64,000 nt of DNA from a virus. The notes under the pieces were generated by a model that searched no databases, was not told the DNA's origin, and saw only the letters and a program-made list of their open reading frames with translations. Position 1 is the first letter of the stretch. Every line of letters starts with the position of its first letter. The stretch spans positions 1 to 64,000 of the IMG/VR virus record IMGVR_UViG_3300027779_000019; one strand, 5' to 3'. The position numbers were made by a program, and so were the translations under genes. Below, piece by piece: positions 22,477-36,620 of the stretch.

Positions 22477-22505
22477 TTGACAAAGCGATAACTTTGTGCT
22501 ATATT
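22477..22505 (+). promoter_or_regulatory. Sigma70-type promoter of a candidate sRNA
   Basis: TTGACA-17-TATATT with TG. Confidence 0.7.
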
Positions 22506-22511
22506 AGTTTG

Positions 22512-22682
22512 TTGGTTGTTTGGTAGACCAAGAATACACGTAAGCTCACGCGTATGGTGTCGGGAGAGACTCTCGAACAAAGGTTATTTTTTAAATGACC
22601 TGCATGAAACAAAGCTGAGCTTACGCGACTCTCTCTCATAACTAGAGTCGGAGACCCCCGCAATGGGGGTCTCTTTTTTTTA
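22512..22682 (+). ncRNA. Candidate structured small RNA (~170 nt)
   Basis: Own promoter and terminator; 10-bp closing stem cgtaagctca/tgagcttacg with two inner hairpins. Confidence 0.5.
22651..22682 (+). terminator. Intrinsic terminator
   Basis: gagacccc-cgcaatg-ggggtctc followed by a T run. Confidence 0.8.
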
Positions 22683-22835: not shown

Positions 22836-22876
22836 TACAACTCATTGATTACCAAGGACTTACATAGGCCGCCCTC

Positions 22877-23014: not shown

Positions 23015-23287
23015 ATGCGTTACATTAACAGCAACTGCACCTATACCGAAAACCACGTTGAGGGAACCTATACGTTCACAGGGCCGTGTCGTGTCACCGG
23101 AGACGACTATAGCGTCACTATACCGGGGCATGAACTTTGGGATCTAAACCAAGGTAAGCCGATCATGTGCTTGAAATCTCTTGATGCGAGCGACAGAGAG
23201 TTCGTCTTGAGTGGAACAAGCCCCAAAGGGTGGGAGAAGCTTTTTGGTGGAGTAGAAGAGATCGCGAAGTCATTAGTCGCGGAGTAG
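23015..23287 (+). CDS. Hypothetical early protein
   Basis: L.A..REF..SG..P..W...F motif; 3' end overlaps the tRNA. Confidence 0.65.
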   Translation: MRYINSNCTYTENHVEGTYTFTGPCRVTGDDYSVTIPGHELWDLNQGKPIMCLKSLDASDREFVLSGTSPKGWEKLFGGVEEIAKSLVAE

Positions 23288-23351
23288 CCAAGCGGTAAGG
23301 CAGGAGATTGCAAATCTCTTATCGTCGGTTCGATTCCGACCTCCGCGTCCA
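23278..23351 (+). tRNA. trnC: tRNA-Cys (GCA)
   Basis: CGCGGAG/CTCCGCG acceptor, D-arm with GG, anticodon loop TT-GCA-AA, T-loop TTCGATT, U discriminator, encoded CCA. Confidence 0.95.
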
Positions 23352-23400: not shown

Positions 23401-23955
23401 ATGAGGGAAAGAGAAGAGCCAAAAGGATTTATTAGCTGGGCAGACGCAGGGCCGCGTAAGGTTGTCGACGGATGTGAGGTAGCGCCGGATCGCGTGAAGG
23501 TTTACTTCAATCTTCAAAAAGACTGCCTTTCGGTAATTGATGCGGAGACTGGACTGCTATACTGTCATGCTCATCGGGTTGAGTTGCGTAATGCCAAGTT
23601 TCGGGTACAGCCAGCAGGTCGGGAGCGAGTCATTCGGGAGAAGCGTAAGAACGTCCACGCTTACATTATCGGTGACTGCCATGACATTGGTGACGTTTCC
23701 AAGGAACGTTTTCGCTTGGTTGATAATGAGTTGTTCGAGAAGTACAGCATCTGTGATTGCGGTGACAAACCATACGACTACTGTGAGGAGTGCGTACCGG
23801 AATCAAGTGATGAGTTTCGCGGAGGGTGTTACAATCCTTATAAGTATAAGACTTTCGTAGACGATGTAGAGAAGACGCCGATCCTCAAGTCAGACAGGGT
23901 GATCGTCAGAGACAAGACGGCGATAGGGTCACATTATAATATATTTTATGTTTGA
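23401..23955 (+). CDS. Conserved phage hypothetical protein
   Basis: VYFNL..SV, F.V..AGRERV.REKRKNVHA, YNPYK..TFV. Confidence 0.75.
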   Translation: MREREEPKGFISWADAGPRKVVDGCEVAPDRVKVYFNLQKDCLSVIDAETGLLYCHAHRVELRNAKFRVQPAGRERVIREKRKNVHAYIIGDCHDIGDVSKERFRLVDNELFEKYSICDCGDKPYDYCEECVPESSDEFRGGCYNPYKYKTFVDDVEKTPILKSDRVIVRDKTAIGSHYNIFYV

Positions 23956-24596: not shown

Positions 24597-25030
24597 TATC
24601 TTCCGTTAAGGGAGGATGTCATAGTTAAGGTTATTGAAAAGGGAGTCTGGCAGGGCGGACTTAAAAGATTAGGGTAGGAATACAATGCTAATCAACCCCT
24701 GACACTTTCTAAAAGCTCTTTGAGCTTTTTAATTGTTCTTTGATTTTGAGTTGGCGGAGTTAAATACCCCTGTGTGTTTGTTCTGACGGTGCAGACACAC
24801 GCCCGCTTTACTGTTGGTGGTGCGACAGCAACTCATTTAATTTTCTCGCTCGACGGAGTGGGATCGGTGTGACGGAATAATCCCTCCCAAAGGGGTAACG
24901 TAGCGACTGCGACAAGTACGGAGACCAATCGGTTGAGGAATCTCGTGGGTGAGTCCGAAGTAAGTAGATCTGAAACATTTGTTTTCTGGGTACTGAAAAG
25001 GTGCGGGTACACAAATACTCCCGCCACCAT
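24597..25030 (+). ncRNA. Candidate structured ncRNA locus (possibly 2-3 RNAs) with boxB/boxA-like element
   Basis: About 430 nt of elevated GC with many stems; hairpin + TGTTCTTTGA at 24711-24743; ends ...cccgccacca. Confidence 0.5.
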
Positions 25031-25040
25031 TTTATTTAAT

Positions 25041-25681: not shown

Positions 25682-25873
25682 ATGGAAATTGAGAACGTTA
25701 AGGAGTGTGTCGAGAGCGCAATGTCGGACTTCTTTTTTGGTGAAGGCTATATTGACGGCGGCGTTGCTTACGCTATTTGCACTAGGGAAGATATGAACGG
25801 CAGGAGCCAGATGACAGAACTTCAGGAAACTATAACTGAAAGAATTATTAACTTTAACAAAGAAAAGGATTGA
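25682..25873 (+). CDS. Hypothetical early protein
   Basis: Leaderless ATG after promoter. Confidence 0.55.
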   Translation: MEIENVKECVESAMSDFFFGEGYIDGGVAYAICTREDMNGRSQMTELQETITERIINFNKEKD

Positions 25874-25898
25874 CATTTAAGCAAAAGTATGATAGACT
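25870..25898 (+). promoter_or_regulatory. Sigma70-type promoter
   Basis: TTGACA-17-TAGACT with TG; leader begins GAGTGAGAGA. Confidence 0.7.
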
Positions 25899-25949
25899 AT
25901 ATTCTTTGAGTGAGAGAACTATATAACAAAAAACTAAACTAAAAAACAT

Positions 25950-26852
25950 ATGGCAAGAACAACTAGACCCACATCAGACAACTACTCCTTCGGCGTACAG
26001 CACACGGCCCTCAAAGCCTCTGACGGTACACCTTCGGGATGGTTTGGAATACAGCGCACCGACAACAACAAAGTTATAGGTGTTAGCTCGGAAAAGTACG
26101 GTATCGTCAAAAACGATGACGTTATAGGAGCCGTCAAGGAGGCGTTAGGAGAGCATCAATCGACTCTTGGAGAATACGAGGAGGAAATCAGCTGCGTGCG
26201 TGATGGTTCGCGTATGTACGGAGGTTTTACCTTTAAGGACTACAAACGTGACCACAAGGACGGTGGTCAGTACGAAAAAGGCGATTACATGGGAATGAAG
26301 TTGACGGTCAATAACTCCTATGACCGCACTTGTCGGGTGTCTCTATCGGTTGGAATGCTTCGCTTGGTTTGCACCAACGGCATGACCTCGCTAGAGCAGG
26401 AACAGTCTATGACTCGCAAGCATTCTCTGCAAGTGGACATTTCTTTCATTCGTGACGCAATCTCTGGCTGCATTGAAAAGTTCGAGTCATCGGTTGACCA
26501 TCTTGGTAGACTGTCAAAGGTTTCCTTGACACAAGACCAAGGCACGAACATATTGAAGAACCTTACCGATAAGAAGATTATATCGGAAGTCGTTCGCGCT
26601 GGTGTCGCTAGTATTTGGGCGAATCCATCCTACGATCAGGACAAACCTCGAAACTTGTATACCTTGTATAACGCATCGACGCAGTACCTCACGCATGATC
26701 CCAACCCTTCTGCTCGGCTTGAGTATTCCAGCAGGGTGGACAAGGTGTTGCTGGGCAAGTTCAGCGAAATGAGTTCGATCCCCAGCAAGTTCAACCTGTT
26801 ATCGGCCAAGCCGAAAGAAAAGAAGCAGGAACAAATTGTCGTTGCTGTCTAA
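25950..26852 (+). CDS. DUF932/DUF945 family phage/plasmid protein
   Basis: RTD...IG.VS.KY.IV.N, NSYDR, RLVCTNGM, RKH, LYTLYNA.T..LTH. Confidence 0.85.
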   Translation: MARTTRPTSDNYSFGVQHTALKASDGTPSGWFGIQRTDNNKVIGVSSEKYGIVKNDDVIGAVKEALGEHQSTLGEYEEEISCVRDGSRMYGGFTFKDYKRDHKDGGQYEKGDYMGMKLTVNNSYDRTCRVSLSVGMLRLVCTNGMTSLEQEQSMTRKHSLQVDISFIRDAISGCIEKFESSVDHLGRLSKVSLTQDQGTNILKNLTDKKIISEVVRAGVASIWANPSYDQDKPRNLYTLYNASTQYLTHDPNPSARLEYSSRVDKVLLGKFSEMSSIPSKFNLLSAKPKEKKQEQIVVAV

Positions 26853-27327: not shown

Positions 27328-27356
27328 TTGACTATTAGCCGAAGCTGTGCTATACT
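27328..27356 (+). promoter_or_regulatory. Sigma70-type promoter
   Basis: TTGACT-17-TATACT with TG. Confidence 0.75.
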
Positions 27357-27363
27357 TTCGGGA

Positions 27364-28008
27364 GTGATTGCAAAAAAGAAAATGACAATAAAACAGGCTC
27401 AAGGGTTGGTCGGTTCGTTATCGACACCATCGAAAATGCCCGGCTTTGGATACAGCACACCGGCAGAAGATTGCGTTACAGGCTCAAAACTGGTTCAGGT
27501 AGTGAATTCTATTTGTTCGTTTTGCTATGCTAGAAAAGGCCGTTACGTTTTCCCAAACGTAATTGCAGCAATGAAAAAACGACTTGCCGCATTGCGTCAA
27601 TTGAATTGGGTGGACGTGATGACCTTCCTAATTGAAAAAAGGGAAAAGAGTGGCTTTTTTCGCTGGCACGATAGCGGAGACGTTCAAGGCGTTTGGCATC
27701 TCGAAAAGATCGCAGAAGTTGCAAGGCGATTGCCCAACATTAAATTTTGGCTGCCGACGAGAGAGTATGGCTTTGTGCGCGAATGGATGAGCTTGGGCAT
27801 CAAGCCGGACAATCTGACTATCCGCTTGTCGGCTTACATGATGGACGGCGCACCACCAGCCACGTTAGCCAAAAAGCTCGGCTTGACGACCAGCGGGGTT
27901 GTTCGTGACGGATTCAGTTGCCCAGCATCTGACCAAGGCAATGAATGCAAAGAGTGCCGCGCTTGCTGGGACGAGACGGTGGAAAATATAAACTATAAGA
28001 AGCACTAA
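27364..28008 (+). CDS. Gp88-family phage protein (Cys-rich, radical-SAM-like)
   Basis: LS.PSKMP, C..GSKL...C..CYA.KG, FRWHDSGD, FWLPTRE, NL.IRLS, C..CRACW. Confidence 0.8.
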   Translation: MIAKKKMTIKQAQGLVGSLSTPSKMPGFGYSTPAEDCVTGSKLVQVVNSICSFCYARKGRYVFPNVIAAMKKRLAALRQLNWVDVMTFLIEKREKSGFFRWHDSGDVQGVWHLEKIAEVARRLPNIKFWLPTREYGFVREWMSLGIKPDNLTIRLSAYMMDGAPPATLAKKLGLTTSGVVRDGFSCPASDQGNECKECRACWDETVENINYKKH

Positions 28009-28988: not shown

Positions 28989-29097
28989 GGTAAATATACA
29001 ACTATTTCAAATATGTAAACACCTAAAAACGAAATAGGTTAAGAGCAAATAACTCAAATATATAAAAAAACTATAAAAGTATATTTTTTCCACAGTT

Positions 29098-29174
29098 GTA
29101 AGTCATTGACTATCAACGACTTACGTCCGGCGGGCTGCCCCCAGCCCGTAACCCATTAGTACTCAAAGGGTTAC
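29098..29174. repeat. 77-bp tripartite palindromic element, copy 4
   Basis: gtaagtcattgactatcaacgacttac / gggctgccc / gtaacccattagtactcaaagggttac. Confidence 0.9.
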
Positions 29175-29881: not shown

Positions 29882-30017
29882 AACAGAAAACAGTATACCA
29901 CAAAATGGAGAAATGTCAATCAATAATGTCACTTTTTTAAAAAAGATATTTTAACTATTTATCGTACTTGGCATGAAAACCCTCCTAAGGTATCGCTTTT
30001 TAGGGTAGTTGGGGTGC

Positions 30018-32393: not shown

Positions 32394-32543
32394 AACTGCA
32401 AAGAGCATAGCACAATCAGCCAAAAAGTCAAGAGAAAAGAATCACTTTTTTAACAAATATGAATAAAAAAAAGAACAAATATTAGGACAAATATGCTTGA
32501 CAAGTTCATCAAAAACCGAAAAAAATGACTTTTTAAAACTACC

Positions 32544-32620
32544 GTAAGTTATTGACTATCAAGGGTTTACGGCGGGCGGGCAGCCCGAGGCCCGTAAGTC
32601 CTTGGCGGGCAGAGGGTTAG
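32544..32620. repeat. 77-bp tripartite palindromic element, copy 6
   Basis: gtaagttattgactatcaagggtttac / cgggcagcccg / gtaagtccttggcgggcagagggttag. Confidence 0.9.
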
Positions 32621-32675
32621 CACCATCATCGGCGCGCTGTGTCTCAAGCGAAACGATGATGGTTTACGCTAGAGA

Positions 32676-32954
32676 CTATATTGAGTCACCAGCGGGCGTT
32701 CGCCTATTCGCGATCCTGTTGAGTTCCGCATTGCATTTACTCATTCGTTTCCGTAGGTTCTGCACCTCCAGTAACGTCTTGCGCTCAAGCATTTCTTCAG
32801 TCTTCATTTCGCTGAAGTACTCAATCATGAAGCGGAGCGTTTTGGTTTTGGTAGTGAACAGCTCATTGCTGAGCTTATCTAGGCTTTGCTTAACTTCGGG
32901 GGATACCCGAAGGTTGATGGCGACGCTTTGGTTGTTTTTCGTTATGTAGTTCAT
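32676..32954 (-). CDS. Ribbon-helix-helix DNA-binding protein with coiled-coil tail
   Basis: VAINLRVSPEVKQSLDKLS....TKTKTLRFMIEYF. Confidence 0.65.
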   Translation of the reverse strand: MNYITKNNQSVAINLRVSPEVKQSLDKLSNELFTTKTKTLRFMIEYFSEMKTEEMLERKTLLEVQNLRKRMSKCNAELNRIANRRTPAGDSI

Positions 32955-33084
32955 TATAAGTTTAAAGTTAGAGCCGCAGCCGTTAATGCTGCACTGCCCG
33001 TTATGCATAGCCACGCATTCAGTTCATTCAATCCGAGATCATTAATTAACCATTTCATTTTATTTATCATAATTCTTTTTATAT

Positions 33085-33309
33085 CTAGTTGGGCCATACT
33101 TGCTCGATGTCCCAGCCATCACGGTCGTTACGCTTACGGCACTCGATGCGAACATCTAATACAGTTGTTTTCCTTATAACACCAGCGAAACCGATTGCGT
33201 CATTGAACGCCCTATGGTCAGGCTCACCCTTCACCATAGGGAAGGCTTTGAAGTTGATGGTGCCGTCTGTCTTCCAGAACACCGTAAACGTTTTGTTTGT
33301 ATCTCTCAT
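33085..33309 (-). CDS. Hypothetical early protein
   Basis: Starts ATGAGAGA like its neighbours. Confidence 0.55.
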   Translation of the reverse strand: MRDTNKTFTVFWKTDGTINFKAFPMVKGEPDHRAFNDAIGFAGVIRKTTVLDVRIECRKRNDRDGWDIEQVWPN

Positions 33310-33321
33310 TATATTAAATCC

Positions 33322-33522
33322 TTATTCGCACTCGTGGCACTGGTAGTTTTCCAAGCCGTGATCCCATTGGCCAACTTCTTCTAGGCTGATCACTACTTCC
33401 GCACCGCATCCGCAGCACACAACCTCATGTCCATCCACGGTGTTGTTGTCGTCGTTCCGATCCATCTCGTTGTTCATTTCGTTATTCATCTTATTCATTT
33501 CGTTGCTCTTTCTCTCACTCAC
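33322..33522 (-). CDS. Small zinc-binding protein
   Basis: CCGC...CHEC; promoter TTGACT-17-TACGAT at 33558. Confidence 0.55.
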   Translation of the reverse strand: MSERKSNEMNKMNNEMNNEMDRNDDNNTVDGHEVVCCGCGAEVVISLEEVGQWDHGLENYQCHECE

Positions 33523-33561
33523 TTGTTATATCGTATCACATTTAAGGTTGAAAGTCAACAC

Positions 33562-33750
33562 TTATTTTGGATTATTTCCACAATATCCAGCCAGTTGATT
33601 GGCTTGGTGCTTGGGGTCATTGTTCACCGTGTAGGTGTTACCGTTCAAGGTGAAGGTGTCACGCTTGGCCTCACGGCGGCGACGTTGCTCCAAGTGTCTG
33701 CGGATCTCTGATATTGTCATTTGATTGTTCATTGTCTTTCTCTCACTCAC
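33562..33750 (-). CDS. Hypothetical early protein
   Basis: GTG 7 nt after promoter TTGACT-17-TAGACT at 33786. Confidence 0.5.
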   Translation of the reverse strand: MSERKTMNNQMTISEIRRHLEQRRRREAKRDTFTLNGNTYTVNNDPKHQANQLAGYCGNNPK

Positions 33751-34077
33751 TGGGTATAGTCTAACACGATAGGCCCGAAAAGTCAAGCGGTTTCTTTGTT
33801 TTATTTCATTTTTATTTCGTGTGATTCTTTACCTAGTTGGCACGATTATTGCCTAGTGATGATTGTATAACTGTCGTAAGTCATTGACTATTAGGTACTT
33901 ACGCCTCGGGGCCAGCCCGCCGACGTAAGTCCTTGGTGCTCAGTGGGTTACGCGAATGGCATGCTTCATGTGTGGCAGGTATCGTGCCAAGTCATTATAA
34001 TACGACACGAAAAGAAAGTTATTTTTTTTACATTTAGGGGTTGACTTTTGAGGTAAGATGTGATATCATATTCCTAG
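33750..34077. promoter_or_regulatory. Mirror-symmetric divergent promoter hub centred at 33913/33914
   Basis: Paired elements at equal distance from the axis: GTGAGTGAG (33750/34077), TTGACT (33786/34041), TTCGTGT (33816/34011), TTGGCACGAT (33837/33990), 27-bp arms (33876/33951). Confidence 0.8.
33876..33951. repeat. 77-bp tripartite palindromic element, copy 7
   Basis: gtaagtcattgactattaggtacttac / gggccagccc / gtaagtccttggtgctcagtgggttac. Confidence 0.9.
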
Positions 34078-34113
34078 TGAGTGAGGGGAGACCCTCCAAC
34101 AGAAAGACAGATT

Positions 34114-34266
34114 ATGGAAGATAAGAAGATTAAGACAGTTAAGGTCAAAGGGCCTTGGGTAGATGGAGTGCAGACAGTCAAGGAGATCAGCCTAGACGAG
34201 TGGACAAGCTATACGCCACTAAACAGGCGAGTACGGGGAGAATGGTTCCGAGTAGTTAAGTGGTAA
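34114..34266 (+). CDS. Small hypothetical early protein
   Basis: MEDKKIK...; downstream of promoter 34041. Confidence 0.5.
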   Translation: MEDKKIKTVKVKGPWVDGVQTVKEISLDEWTSYTPLNRRVRGEWFRVVKW

Positions 34267-34273
34267 AAAGGGC

Positions 34274-34302
34274 TTGACTTTATAGGTAAAGTGTGATATC
34301 AT
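34274..34302 (+). promoter_or_regulatory. Sigma70-type promoter
   Basis: TTGACT-17-TATCAT with TG; GTGAGTGAGAGA 7 nt downstream. Confidence 0.7.
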
Positions 34303-34309
34303 TTATCCA

Positions 34310-34582
34310 GTGAGTGAGAGAAACAGTAAGATGAAAAACAAAATAAAATTCCTAAACGTAGTGTTCAACGTCAAGCGCAACGCCGCTTACCAAGGCAACC
34401 ACGAGCTTGCCAGAACCGATAGAATCCACACGACCTTCCCGCTCGGCACAACCGAGGAGGAAATGATCAGCGAGTTTCACTCGGAGCTAGTCAACATCGA
34501 CATTAACGGTAAGACTTGGCTAAAGGGTGAAATGATTCAGGTCACCAGCATTGATAATTGTTTCGAAGATTCAACTAACTAA
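34310..34582 (+). CDS. Hypothetical early protein
   Basis: 90-aa ORF after promoter. Confidence 0.55.
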   Translation: MSERNSKMKNKIKFLNVVFNVKRNAAYQGNHELARTDRIHTTFPLGTTEEEMISEFHSELVNIDINGKTWLKGEMIQVTSIDNCFEDSTN

Positions 34583-35069: not shown

Positions 35070-35543
35070 TTAGCGCCGCCCATCTCTTAACCGATTGATA
35101 ATCAGGGAAGTAGAGCGCCCTTTCTTAAACGGTAGGATGCAAATTTCCGCCCTGACCATCTCTAAAACGCTCCTTTCGCATATATTGAGAGACTCTACGG
35201 AGTAATCTCCGCCTTTTGCATAAATGTGAGGCCTACTAGAAGCTATAAAGTCTCTGCCACCCTTTTCGGGGAAGACAGTTACTACGTCGACGGCTCTTAA
35301 GGCGTCGAGAACGGCCGCTCTATCGTTTTCTGAGTTAATTGGGCGGTCAGACCCCTTAAGTTGGCGTACGGAGGCGTCACTATCGCATCCTACAAGTAGC
35401 AGGTCGCCCAAAGCAGCAGCTTTATTAAGATAATCTACATGACCAGCATGCAACAGGTCGAAACAACCATTCGTTACAACTAACTTCGTGCTTGGGTCAA
35501 GATCGTCTCGCCAACTACGTAAATCATCAATAGAAACAAACAT
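35070..35543 (-). CDS. RfaE/HldE domain II-like nucleotidyltransferase (ADP-heptose synthase-like)
   Basis: VVTNGCFDLLHAGHVDYL, DASVRQLKG..RPIN...RA.VL..L..VD.V, KGGDY, STS.II. Confidence 0.9.
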   Translation of the reverse strand: MFVSIDDLRSWRDDLDPSTKLVVTNGCFDLLHAGHVDYLNKAAALGDLLLVGCDSDASVRQLKGSDRPINSENDRAAVLDALRAVDVVTVFPEKGGRDFIASSRPHIYAKGGDYSVESLNICERSVLEMVRAEICILPFKKGRSTSLIINRLRDGRR

Positions 35544-35588: not shown

Positions 35589-36620
35589 ATGTGCAAGGAA
35601 CTCTCTTCCGCCAAAGGGATCGTCTATAGGATACAGTGTTTAGTCTCCGATAAATCCTACGTAGGTCAAACAGGTAAACATTTATCCTTCTTCGATAGAT
35701 ACTCCGTAAAAAGATCATTACAAGATAAAACTCAAATCGAGCTACTAGAATACTTCAAAAGAGGTAAAACAAATAGATTTGGATCTGAACTTAGGAGAGA
35801 CGTCGAAGCTTACCCCCCTGATCAGTTCAGGGTTACTATATTAGCCAAAGAAATAAAAAAAGACAAGGAAAGAGACTCCCTAGAGGCGGAATTCATCAAA
35901 AAATACAAAACCCTTGAAAAAGGATACAATACGATGAAAAATAGCTCTTTCGCCCGTCGCGAATTGAACTCTCCTTATTCTATCGTAGATCTAAGGACAA
36001 TGAAGGAACTAAAAGGTAGTGACTTAAATGCCTTCGTCAAATCAATAATAACTGAAATAAGGCCCACCCATCGGTCAGGTAAGGAAAAAGAAAACGCCTT
36101 CAAGGTGACAAGATCACTGCTTTCGACTTTGCCTGTGTCGTTTAGGACTAATTTGCGAACCGGAAGATGGAATTGGCACACCTCGATTGAAAATTTCTCA
36201 ATATACGGATACGCCTCGTCTTGGTGGTTAAAAAGCGGAGTACCGGACAACATGGAAGTAGTTCCCCATGAATACGACACAATTTCCGGTAAAATGACAT
36301 TACCGCTGCTTAAAATAAAAGAAGGGTACCTAGTAGAACACGGGCGAGGAAAAGCGTTTAATCCTGAACCGTTTATTTTCTCTATAGACCCAATAGAGCA
36401 TCAAAAACAAAAAGAAATCATAAAAAATGAATTATCAGAGTGGATCTCGAACGAAGCTCTCAGTTATGCAGAAAAATTAGCGGAAAAATACAAATTTATA
36501 TTAAATACCCCAATCGGGCCGGGAGGTGTGGATTCTTATCTGAATCTAATAGTCGAAGACGGCGGCCGGAACTCGTCGCACGCGCACCCGCAACTTGGTG
36601 GCCGCGACCGAAAAAAGTAG
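35589..36620 (+). CDS. GIY-YIG endonuclease (free-standing, homing-type)
   Basis: GIVYRIQC....KSYVGQT, conserved R, E..FIKKY.T...GYN. Confidence 0.75.
   Translation: MCKELSSAKGIVYRIQCLVSDKSYVGQTGKHLSFFDRYSVKRSLQDKTQIELLEYFKRGKTNRFGSELRRDVEAYPPDQFRVTILAKEIKKDKERDSLEAEFIKKYKTLEKGYNTMKNSSFARRELNSPYSIVDLRTMKELKGSDLNAFVKSIITEIRPTHRSGKEKENAFKVTRSLLSTLPVSFRTNLRTGRWNWHTSIENFSIYGYASSWWLKSGVPDNMEVVPHEYDTISGKMTLPLLKIKEGYLVEHGRGKAFNPEPFIFSIDPIEHQKQKEIIKNELSEWISNEALSYAEKLAEKYKFILNTPIGPGGVDSYLNLIVEDGGRNSSHAHPQLGGRDRKK

Follow-up and report, generated by a model that had tools for sequence, protein, structure and literature searches.

A mirror-symmetric divergent promoter hub centred on a palindromic repeat in an uncultured marine phage

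The divergent hub and its surroundings

The window analysed here is the first 64 kb of the linear IMG/VR viral record IMGVR_UViG_3300027779_000019 (77,679 bp, estimated to be approximately 49% complete). Two sets of genes with early-type promoters diverge from a region near 33.9 kb, as had been claimed in an earlier sequence-only reading of this DNA, and we refer to this region as the hub. The leftward gene set extends from 33.9 kb back to approximately 28.4 kb, and the rightward set covers only approximately 1.1 kb. The centre of the hub is the last of seven copies of a tripartite repeat, which consists of a 29-bp arm, a GC-rich core of approximately 20 nt and a second 29-bp arm (the copies start at 22876, 25541, 27183, 29097, 30017, 32543, and 33875). 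Reading outwards from the repeat, each side has a conserved TTGGCACG box, an AT-rich tract and a predicted inner promoter (P_L1 or P_R1), followed one small gene further out by a second predicted promoter of the same class (P_L2 or P_R2) (Table 1). All four predicted promoters are exact matches to the pattern TTGACTTT-N27-AGTGAGTGAG, with a 17-nt spacer and a TG dinucleotide before the -10 element, and both directions of the hub carry the same early-type promoter class. The chance expectation for this pattern is 0.07 matches in the window when up to three mismatches are allowed.

Table 1. Features of the hub and its mirror-image motif pairs (positions are those of the window).
Feature	Position	Strand	Description
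Gene L2	33322-33522	-	small protein; frame begins at the leader GTG
P_L2, outer leftward promoter	33514-33558	-	-35 TTGACT 33553-33558, 17-nt spacer with TG, -10 TACGAT, GTGAGTGAG leader 33514-33522; pattern match and consensus scan
Gene L1	33562-33750	-	small protein; ATG 33729, leader GTG 33750 in frame; replaced in L056
P_L1, inner leftward promoter	33742-33786	-	-35 TTGACT 33781-33786, -10 TAGACT, GTGAGTGAG leader 33742-33750; mirrors P_R1
P_L1 AT-rich upstream tract	33793-33836	-	contains TTTCGTGT 33815-33822 (reverse complement of ACACGAAA); AT 0.72-0.75
Left box TTGGCACGATTATTGCC	33837-33853	+	perfect TGGCACG-N4-TTGC pointing inward; outward reads ATCGTGCCAA, 51 nt from the P_L1 -35
Arm A, repeat copy 7	33875-33903		29-bp imperfect palindrome CGTAAGTC-N-TTGA-N3-TCAA-N-GACTTACG
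GC-rich core, repeat copy 7	33904-33923		holds the axis 33913.5
Arm B, repeat copy 7	33924-33952		29-bp arm
Inner TGGCATG half-site	33957-33963	+	next to arm B; inverted pair with the right box; also in L054 and L061
Right box TTGGCACGATACCTGCC	33974-33990	-	mirror of the left box
P_R1 AT-rich upstream tract	33991-34040	+	contains ACACGAAA 34005-34012; AT 0.72-0.75
P_R1, inner rightward promoter	34041-34085	+	-35 TTGACT, 17 nt with TG, -10 TATCAT, GTGAGTGAG leader
Gene R1	34114-34266	+	50 amino acids; other positions and orientations in relatives
P_R2, outer rightward promoter	34274-34318	+	pattern match and consensus scan
Gene R2	34310-34582	+	ATG 34331, leader GTG 34310 in frame; G002 homologue on the opposite strand, inside the leftward array
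Arm pair	33875-33903 / 33924-33952		axis 33913.5
TTGGCACGAT box pair	33837-33846 / 33981-33990		axis 33913.5
TTCGTGT / ACACGAA pair	33816-33822 / 34005-34011		axis 33913.5
Inner -35 TTGACT pair	33781-33786 / 34041-34046		axis 33913.5
Inner GTGAGTGAG leader pair	33742-33750 / 34077-34085		axis 33913.5
Outer promoter pair	-35 33553-33558 / 34274-34279; leaders 33514-33522 / 34310-34318		axis 33916

The hub DNA is present in many marine and seawater metagenome runs. Searches with megablast and blastn recovered no nucleotide relative of the hub among 50,697 phage records, and a 33-nt arm query gave only matches with E-values of approximately 1 against cultured-phage records, located inside Vibrio phage genes. 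The terminase-like protein has 24-25% identity to terminases of Bacillus and SPbeta-like phages and to a Clostridium phage protein. By these comparisons the phage is without a close cultured relative. A prepilin-like protein was searched against GTDB genomes for host inference and no relative was found. Two RNA runs (X23 and X24) contain only 5-6% of the sampled words.

Mirror symmetry of the hub

When the sequence is compared with its own reverse complement around axis 33913.5, 106 of the 200 positions pair over 200 nt on either side with no gap allowed, while the 24 neighbouring registers reach 42 to 60. For the 77,679-bp contig as a whole the axes average 50.4 (sd 6.5) and the runner-up, in an AT-rich low-complexity stretch, scores 85, which makes the hub the sole outstanding palindrome of the contig. 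All seven motif pairs claimed in the sequence-only reading were recovered, and the five inner pairs share a single axis (the coordinates of each pair sum to 67827). The symmetry is concentrated in islands, namely the arms (20/29), the box (14/18), the ACACGAAA motif (8/9) and the stretch from promoter to leader (33/51), and the spacers between these islands have only background identity (4/21, 5/12, and 10/28). Despite this decay, there is not a single insertion or deletion between the two halves over the 88 nt from arm to -35 element on each side, and a gapped alignment of the halves is no better than the gapless one. The proposal that the region is a promoter module duplicated in inverted orientation, with a palindromic repeat at its centre, is supported. 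The bidirectional switch that had been suggested along with it is not supported, and both sides carry the same promoter class.

The outer promoters were also described in the sequence-only reading as lying at near-equal distances from the centre. Both promoters are present, with an axis that is 2.5 nt off the hub axis. In the related contig L061 the near-symmetry is lost, as the genes that separate the inner from the outer promoters have other lengths there, and we regard it as a coincidence between the similar sizes of two unrelated small genes.

A large palindrome in a linear contig of approximately 49% completeness could mark the point where genome ends are joined or where hairpin telomeres are resolved, both of which had been suggested for the hub. 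The axis is however not a perfect palindrome (five of ten core positions are complementary around 33913.5, and 53% of positions overall), the flanking genes are unrelated and not mirrored, and the central element is one of seven copies. Logan contigs from four marine runs span 32400-34167 or 33680-34168 unbroken, and L056 and L061 bridge the hub too; Logan contigs cannot show the ends of molecules, so this is a test of bridging only. The protelomerase or tyrosine recombinase that had been proposed as a search target was not detected either, with no match to ResT/TelK (PF16684) or Phage_integrase in the 77,679 bp of this roughly half-complete record. We consider this explanation to be largely refuted and give it almost no credence.

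Conservation and rearrangement in relatives

To compare the hub with related sequences, we used the promoter-leader pattern TTGACTTT-N27-AGTGAGTGAG, which recovered nine further IMG/VR contigs, two of them analysed as whole records (G001 and G002), and additional loci were recovered with a box-plus-arm pattern and with the R1 protein. A strict hub pattern (box, TGCC, and arm) had no further match in IMG/VR. Most matches to a looser version were chance ones from outside the phage group.

L061 and L056 contain the same hub, scoring 104/200 and 105/200, with 90-96% identity and no insertion or deletion in the central 250 bp. L054 is considerably more diverged, with 73% central identity and a score of 83/200. 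It has TTGTAA -35 hexamers and other leader types, and its boxes lie at offsets 60-77 and its -35 elements at offset 127 on both sides. The 30-nt and 51-nt distances that separate the box from the arm and from the -35 element thus recur on both sides of L054, and on one side of L048, despite diverged spacers, and the spacing does look constrained, as the sequence-only reading had it. In L048 and L049 the long-half geometry occupies one side and the other side is a short half without a box. The hub of L015, L046, and L047 is also divergent, with the repeat flanked on either side by R1-like paralogues, but it is off-centre and lacks boxes. No symmetric hub is found in G002, in which the early genes are reshuffled in order and orientation. 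A palindrome peak at 26066 in G002 (92/200; approximately 25,790-26,350) was examined as a candidate and rejected, as it consists of two divergent paralogous genes and is a coding inverted duplication, not a hub. The sequence-only reading had made its claim depend on the symmetry being conserved in related phages; it is kept in L056, L061, and L054, kept by half in L048, and absent from L015 and G002. The mirror hub is therefore a lineage-restricted arrangement and not a private one.

R1 is replaced directly after its ATG in L061, where an R1 homologue lies inverted inside the leftward array, L1 is replaced by other sequence in L056, and R1 and R2 stand behind a different promoter in L045. Comparison of these sequences shows the cassettes to be joints at which relatives swap, move, and invert small genes. 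In one Logan contig, from run X4, position 33004 is connected to 34572 with a change of strand, which would put R2 leftward next to the gene at 32676-33014, as in G002; this is a weak observation, being a single contig with 31 nt on its shorter side and 85% likeness.

The palindromic repeat

The remaining repeat copies lie 23-36 nt upstream of early promoters, identified by consensus, both in the window and in every relative examined. We asked how the arms vary across 85 distinct arm sequences. At each of the 13 positions the fraction of complementary pairs equals the prediction from column frequencies, and the variable positions 6/24 and 9/21 have no compensatory changes. Pairing of arm A with arm B in 43 paired elements likewise has no compensatory changes and equals the column-frequency prediction. 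This absence of base-pair covariation indicates that the arms are conserved as a sequence motif and not as a selected hairpin, as expected for sites of a dimeric DNA-binding protein. The 79-nt elements fold as RNA at -23 to -38 kcal/mol, the cores of relatives contain G-runs or C-runs, and no T-run follows the repeat elements. A scan against Rfam identified no family in the hub or on the arms, and the only matches in the surrounding region were a tRNA (23278-23348) and, at 24846-25034 within a promoter-driven non-coding stretch, a match to the manA RNA motif that reached 38 bits and so fell below the gathering score of 55.

The exact arm palindrome GTAAGTC-N-TTGA-N3-TCAA-N-GACTTAC, as found at 29097-29125, also occurs at 13 bacterial loci in GTDB (L072-L084). 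The motif has 22 fixed bases, and approximately 0.03 chance matches were calculated for the 596 Gb searched. Five of the 13 loci represent one orthologous divergent intergenic region in five Fibrobacter metagenome-assembled genomes (MAGs). The others comprise a locus common to Falsochrobactrum ovis and Daeguia caeni, a site upstream of the Rha-like gene of a Pantoea prophage, loci in Entotheonella and in a Pirellulaceae MAG, and three contigs of phage-like character within MAG bins. Rfam has no matching family. The distribution suggests that the arm site may be read by a widely distributed protein. Listed terminators of Stenotrophomonas phage DLP6 are preceded by TCAACGACTTAG (PMC5349666). We rejected a link to the arms as coincidence, and the DLP6 genome has no arm-like palindrome at up to three mismatches.

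A replication origin between the divergent early promoters was among the functions offered in the sequence-only reading. The arms would then be initiator sites and the AT-rich tracts, which flank the GC-rich palindromic centre, unwinding elements. Divergent transcription beside origins is known in other viruses and provides a precedent. The same arms are nevertheless present in seven elements of the contig and many times over in relatives, always beside promoters, and no initiator or helicase-loader family was recognised among the neighbouring proteins scanned. Cumulative GC skew, a weak test, has only a minor local dip at the hub (949 at 33.6 kb), and the regional trough is at approximately 43 kb, where large gene blocks diverge. 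An origin at the hub is, on this evidence, improbable.

Boxes and their spacing

The two halves of the hub are long compared with ordinary cassettes. Each half has 88 nt between arm and -35 element, with 30 nt separating the arm from the TTGGCACG box and 51 nt the box from the -35 element, unlike the ordinary short cassettes, in which only 23-36 nt separate repeat and promoter. Since each half has this box-bearing stretch, the hub can be described as two long cassettes that share one repeat. The box also occurs in tandem, non-hub cassettes of contig L074. Across nine modules, the box lies 21, 32, 50, 51 (four modules), 52, or 60 nt from the -35 element, and the distances from arm to box are 29/30 or 40 nt. 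The module spacings therefore differ by approximately 10 nt, or roughly one helical turn, which suggests that the box is an upstream site of the outward promoter that would be held on one face of the helix. Together with the lack of covariation in the arms, these 10-nt steps lead us to read arms and boxes as probable protein sites. One further candidate box, TTGGCATG at 29969, was rejected as it is the reverse complement of a ribosome-binding site plus ATG.

The sequence of the boxes (TGGCACG-N4-YTGC) permits a different assignment, in which they are sigma-54 promoters firing inward, so that both strands of the palindromic element would be transcribed and transcription would continue into the opposite gene set. 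Measured against the consensus TGGCAC-N5-TTGC, in which exactly 10 nt lie between the GG at -24 and the GC at -12, the left box (33838-33852) matches at 11 of 11 positions, for which approximately 0.03 matches are calculated by chance in the window, and the right box (33989-33975) matches at 10 of 11. GG-N10-GC is kept in seven of eight outer boxes (G0, L048, L054, L056/L061, and L058), with a purine following in the TGGCACG ones. The predicted start would fall approximately 10 nt before the arm, and the hub otherwise has no upstream gene from which the element would be transcribed. The -12 GC is, however, missing from the left box of L054, from both boxes of L074 and from the inner half-sites, and L058, like the right sides of G0 and L054, has its boxes as inverted, operator-like pairs. 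The distance from the box to the outward -35 element is kept even in the tandem non-hub arrays of L074, as would be expected if the box served the outward promoter from upstream. No Sigma54_DBD match was found on three contigs, and the only Sigma54_activat match was a clamp-loader/RuvB-like AAA+ protein. The assignment is weakened by these results and we consider it unlikely.

It is also conceivable that the symmetry is only a record of history, i.e., that an inversion or inverted duplication between repeats set two independent cassettes back to back and that the spacing was inherited without selection. The background identity of the spacers is what old neutral DNA would be expected to show, the hubs of L015 and G002 are asymmetric or absent, L048 joins a long half to a short half, and cassette inversions are seen between relatives. 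Neutral drift does not readily account for the lack of any insertion or deletion in 2 x 88 nt while the spacers diverged to background, for the offsets that L054 keeps at 73% central identity with different promoters and leaders, or for box modules elsewhere that vary in steps of approximately 10 nt instead of arbitrary lengths. We regard purely historical symmetry as a possibility to be taken seriously, though not as a likely one.

Leaders and neighbouring genes

The hub-adjacent small genes, L1, L2, and R1 among them, matched no Pfam or PHROG family. Three of the four hub promoters have, at the predicted start of transcription, a GTG in the reading frame of the gene that follows (33742-33750, 33514-33522, and 34310-34318), giving proteins that begin MSERK/N, and relatives have an ATG at the same leader position (ATGAGAGA...). 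Because the start codon coincides with the predicted start of transcription, the early mRNAs of L1, L2, and R2, from three of the four hub promoters, may be leaderless. The leader of R1, by contrast, is 37 nt long and contains a conserved GAGGG...CCCTC hairpin.

Two classes of early leader can be distinguished, AGTGAGTGAGAGA at the four hub promoters and AGTTATGAGAGA at leftward genes between 31.8 and 32.4 kb (31771, 32103, and 32386) and in many relatives. A small-RNA locus at 22.5 kb (22477-22681) has a loop, TCTCTCATAACT, that exactly complements the AGTTATGAGAGA class only, and it has just 7 nt in common with the hub leaders.

A third, degenerate copy of the left-half spacer (the AT-rich tract and CTAGTTGG...) was found at 33058-33095, 750 nt left of the hub and in the same orientation. 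Its box has decayed to TTGGGCCA and no repeat element adjoins it. Where the short rightward set of early genes ends, at 1.2-1.7 kb to the right of the hub, there are a cytidylyltransferase-like gene (35070-35543) and a gene for a 343-amino-acid protein (35589-36620) with a weak, sub-threshold GIY-YIG match, possibly a homing-type endonuclease. Two conserved early-region proteins, encoded at 23401-23955 and 27328-28008, match the mycobacteriophage-named families Phage_L5_gp82 and GP88.

Comparison with described systems

The closest described system is the promoter-early stem-loop (PeSL) cassette of the hyperplastic regions of T4-type phages, in which a GC stem-loop is combined with an AT-rich tract and a sigma-70-like promoter (Arbiol et al. 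2010, PMC2839356; Comeau et al. 2014, PMC4122927). PeSLs flank genes without known relatives and mediate modular shuffling, and terminator activity and mini-circles have been shown for them (PMC2839356, PMC4122927). The hub phage likewise has composite intergenic cassettes in multiple copies, in which a palindromic or stem-loop element rich in GC is combined with an AT-rich tract and a predicted strong sigma-70-like early promoter. Its seven copies lie between small genes without a family (22.8-34 kb), and its relatives (L061, L056, L045, and G002) have gained, replaced, and moved genes with breakpoints inside cassettes. The core and arms of the hub can also fold as a stem-loop, but here without covariation.

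The two systems differ in several respects. The GC core of the hub is flanked by two 29-bp palindromic arms that are conserved in sequence, a subset of cassettes has the extra TTGGCACG box at fixed distances, and the leader, up to the start codon, belongs to the conserved unit. Two long cassettes are in addition fused into a mirror of 370 bp whose geometry is kept in a diverged relative. PeSLs were described in T4-type myoviruses. The hub phage has no close cultured relative, its terminase-like protein having only the 24-25% identity to cultured Bacillus, SPbeta-like, and Clostridium phages reported above. The cassette principle is not new; the novelty lies in palindromic arms that are conserved in sequence, in the additional box and in the mirror-image fusion.

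In the central transcriptional control region of Bacillus phage phi29, promoters A2c/A2b diverge from A3, with phased sites for p4 and a nucleoprotein complex formed by p6. This region resembles the hub in covering a few hundred bp between divergent promoters, with inverted-repeat sites, putative protein sites in the hub, at fixed and helically phased distances from the promoters. In phi29 the two directions are early and late and the proteins are known, while the hub has the same early-type promoter both ways as a near mirror image.

The telomere resolution sites of N15 (telRL), PY54, and phiKO2 are perfect or near-perfect palindromes that are cut by a phage-encoded protelomerase. They share with the hub only that a palindrome lies within a phage genome; the hub axis is degenerate, its central element is repeated across the contig and no protelomerase gene was found in the 77,679 bp. 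As for sigma-54 (-24/-12) promoters, the likeness is in the TGGCACG-N4-TTGC motif, perfect in the left box and 10 of 11 in the right. The boxes depart from these promoters in that the -12 GC is not kept in several relatives, in that their spacing is conserved towards the outward sigma-70 promoter, and in that no activator or sigma-54 gene was found on the contigs.

Interpretation

The mirror architecture, the pattern of conservation, the exchange and inversion of genes at cassette boundaries, and the lack of covariation are all shown by the comparisons above. We think it probable that the hub is a divergent early control region of 370 bases, made of two long cassettes head to head, with arms and boxes that are likely to be protein sites, and that it arose when palindromic repeats recombined in inverted alignment. 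Each half consists, from the centre outwards, of a 29-bp arm, 30 nt, a CGTGCCAA box, 51 nt of AT-rich DNA, a predicted strong sigma-70-type promoter (TTGACTTT, 17 nt with TG, and a -10 element) and the conserved initial transcribed sequence GTGAGTGAG. Host RNA polymerase would fire outwards from all four promoters, to judge from their consensus. The arms and boxes would be double-stranded DNA sites for dimeric proteins acting on both inner promoters, to which they would be coupled by a fixed, helically phased geometry. The mirror itself could have arisen by inverted duplication or by inversion through the repeat; as the repeat is itself palindromic, two copies should be able to recombine in either relative orientation.

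Several points weigh against this interpretation. Palindromic DNA also folds as RNA, and the repeat may have an RNA-level role in the arrays. The geometry shared by L054 and L048 could reflect common ancestry without selection, and L015 (with its twins L046 and L047) and G002 manage without a symmetric hub. The five 88-nt halves possibly represent one event, which leaves approximately five independent spacings for the phasing argument and makes it suggestive. A scan of 20 neighbouring proteins recovered no DNA-binding family, whether helix-turn-helix, ParB, or another, and a search for ParB_N was negative. Promoter use, early timing and transcript starts are all read from consensus and are to be taken as predictions.

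A bolder and rather doubtful extension is that the hub is a nucleoprotein control centre, in which a factor or pair of factors would bind the arms and TTGGCACG boxes at helically phased distances, so that the two strongest early promoters would be coupled, insulated, or silenced together. In a sharper variant the boxes are of the inward sigma-54 type, which, if true, would place the early region of a phage under the control of host sigma-54, or would yield, at the hub alone, an RNA that is double-stranded or a hairpin.

What is new about the hub is that two cassettes are fused as a register-perfect mirror, that the geometry is kept in a diverged relative despite decayed spacers, and that the conserved blocks behave as protein sites and not as hairpins. 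If the spacing is functional, the hub would be a compact natural case of coordinated bidirectional early transcription in a group of uncultured marine phages. It also gives a handle on the factor that reads the arm palindrome, which is found in bacteria of several phyla. Finally, the comparisons suggest that palindromic repeats allow cassettes to be inverted as well as deleted and inserted, which would extend the shuffling model developed for PeSLs.

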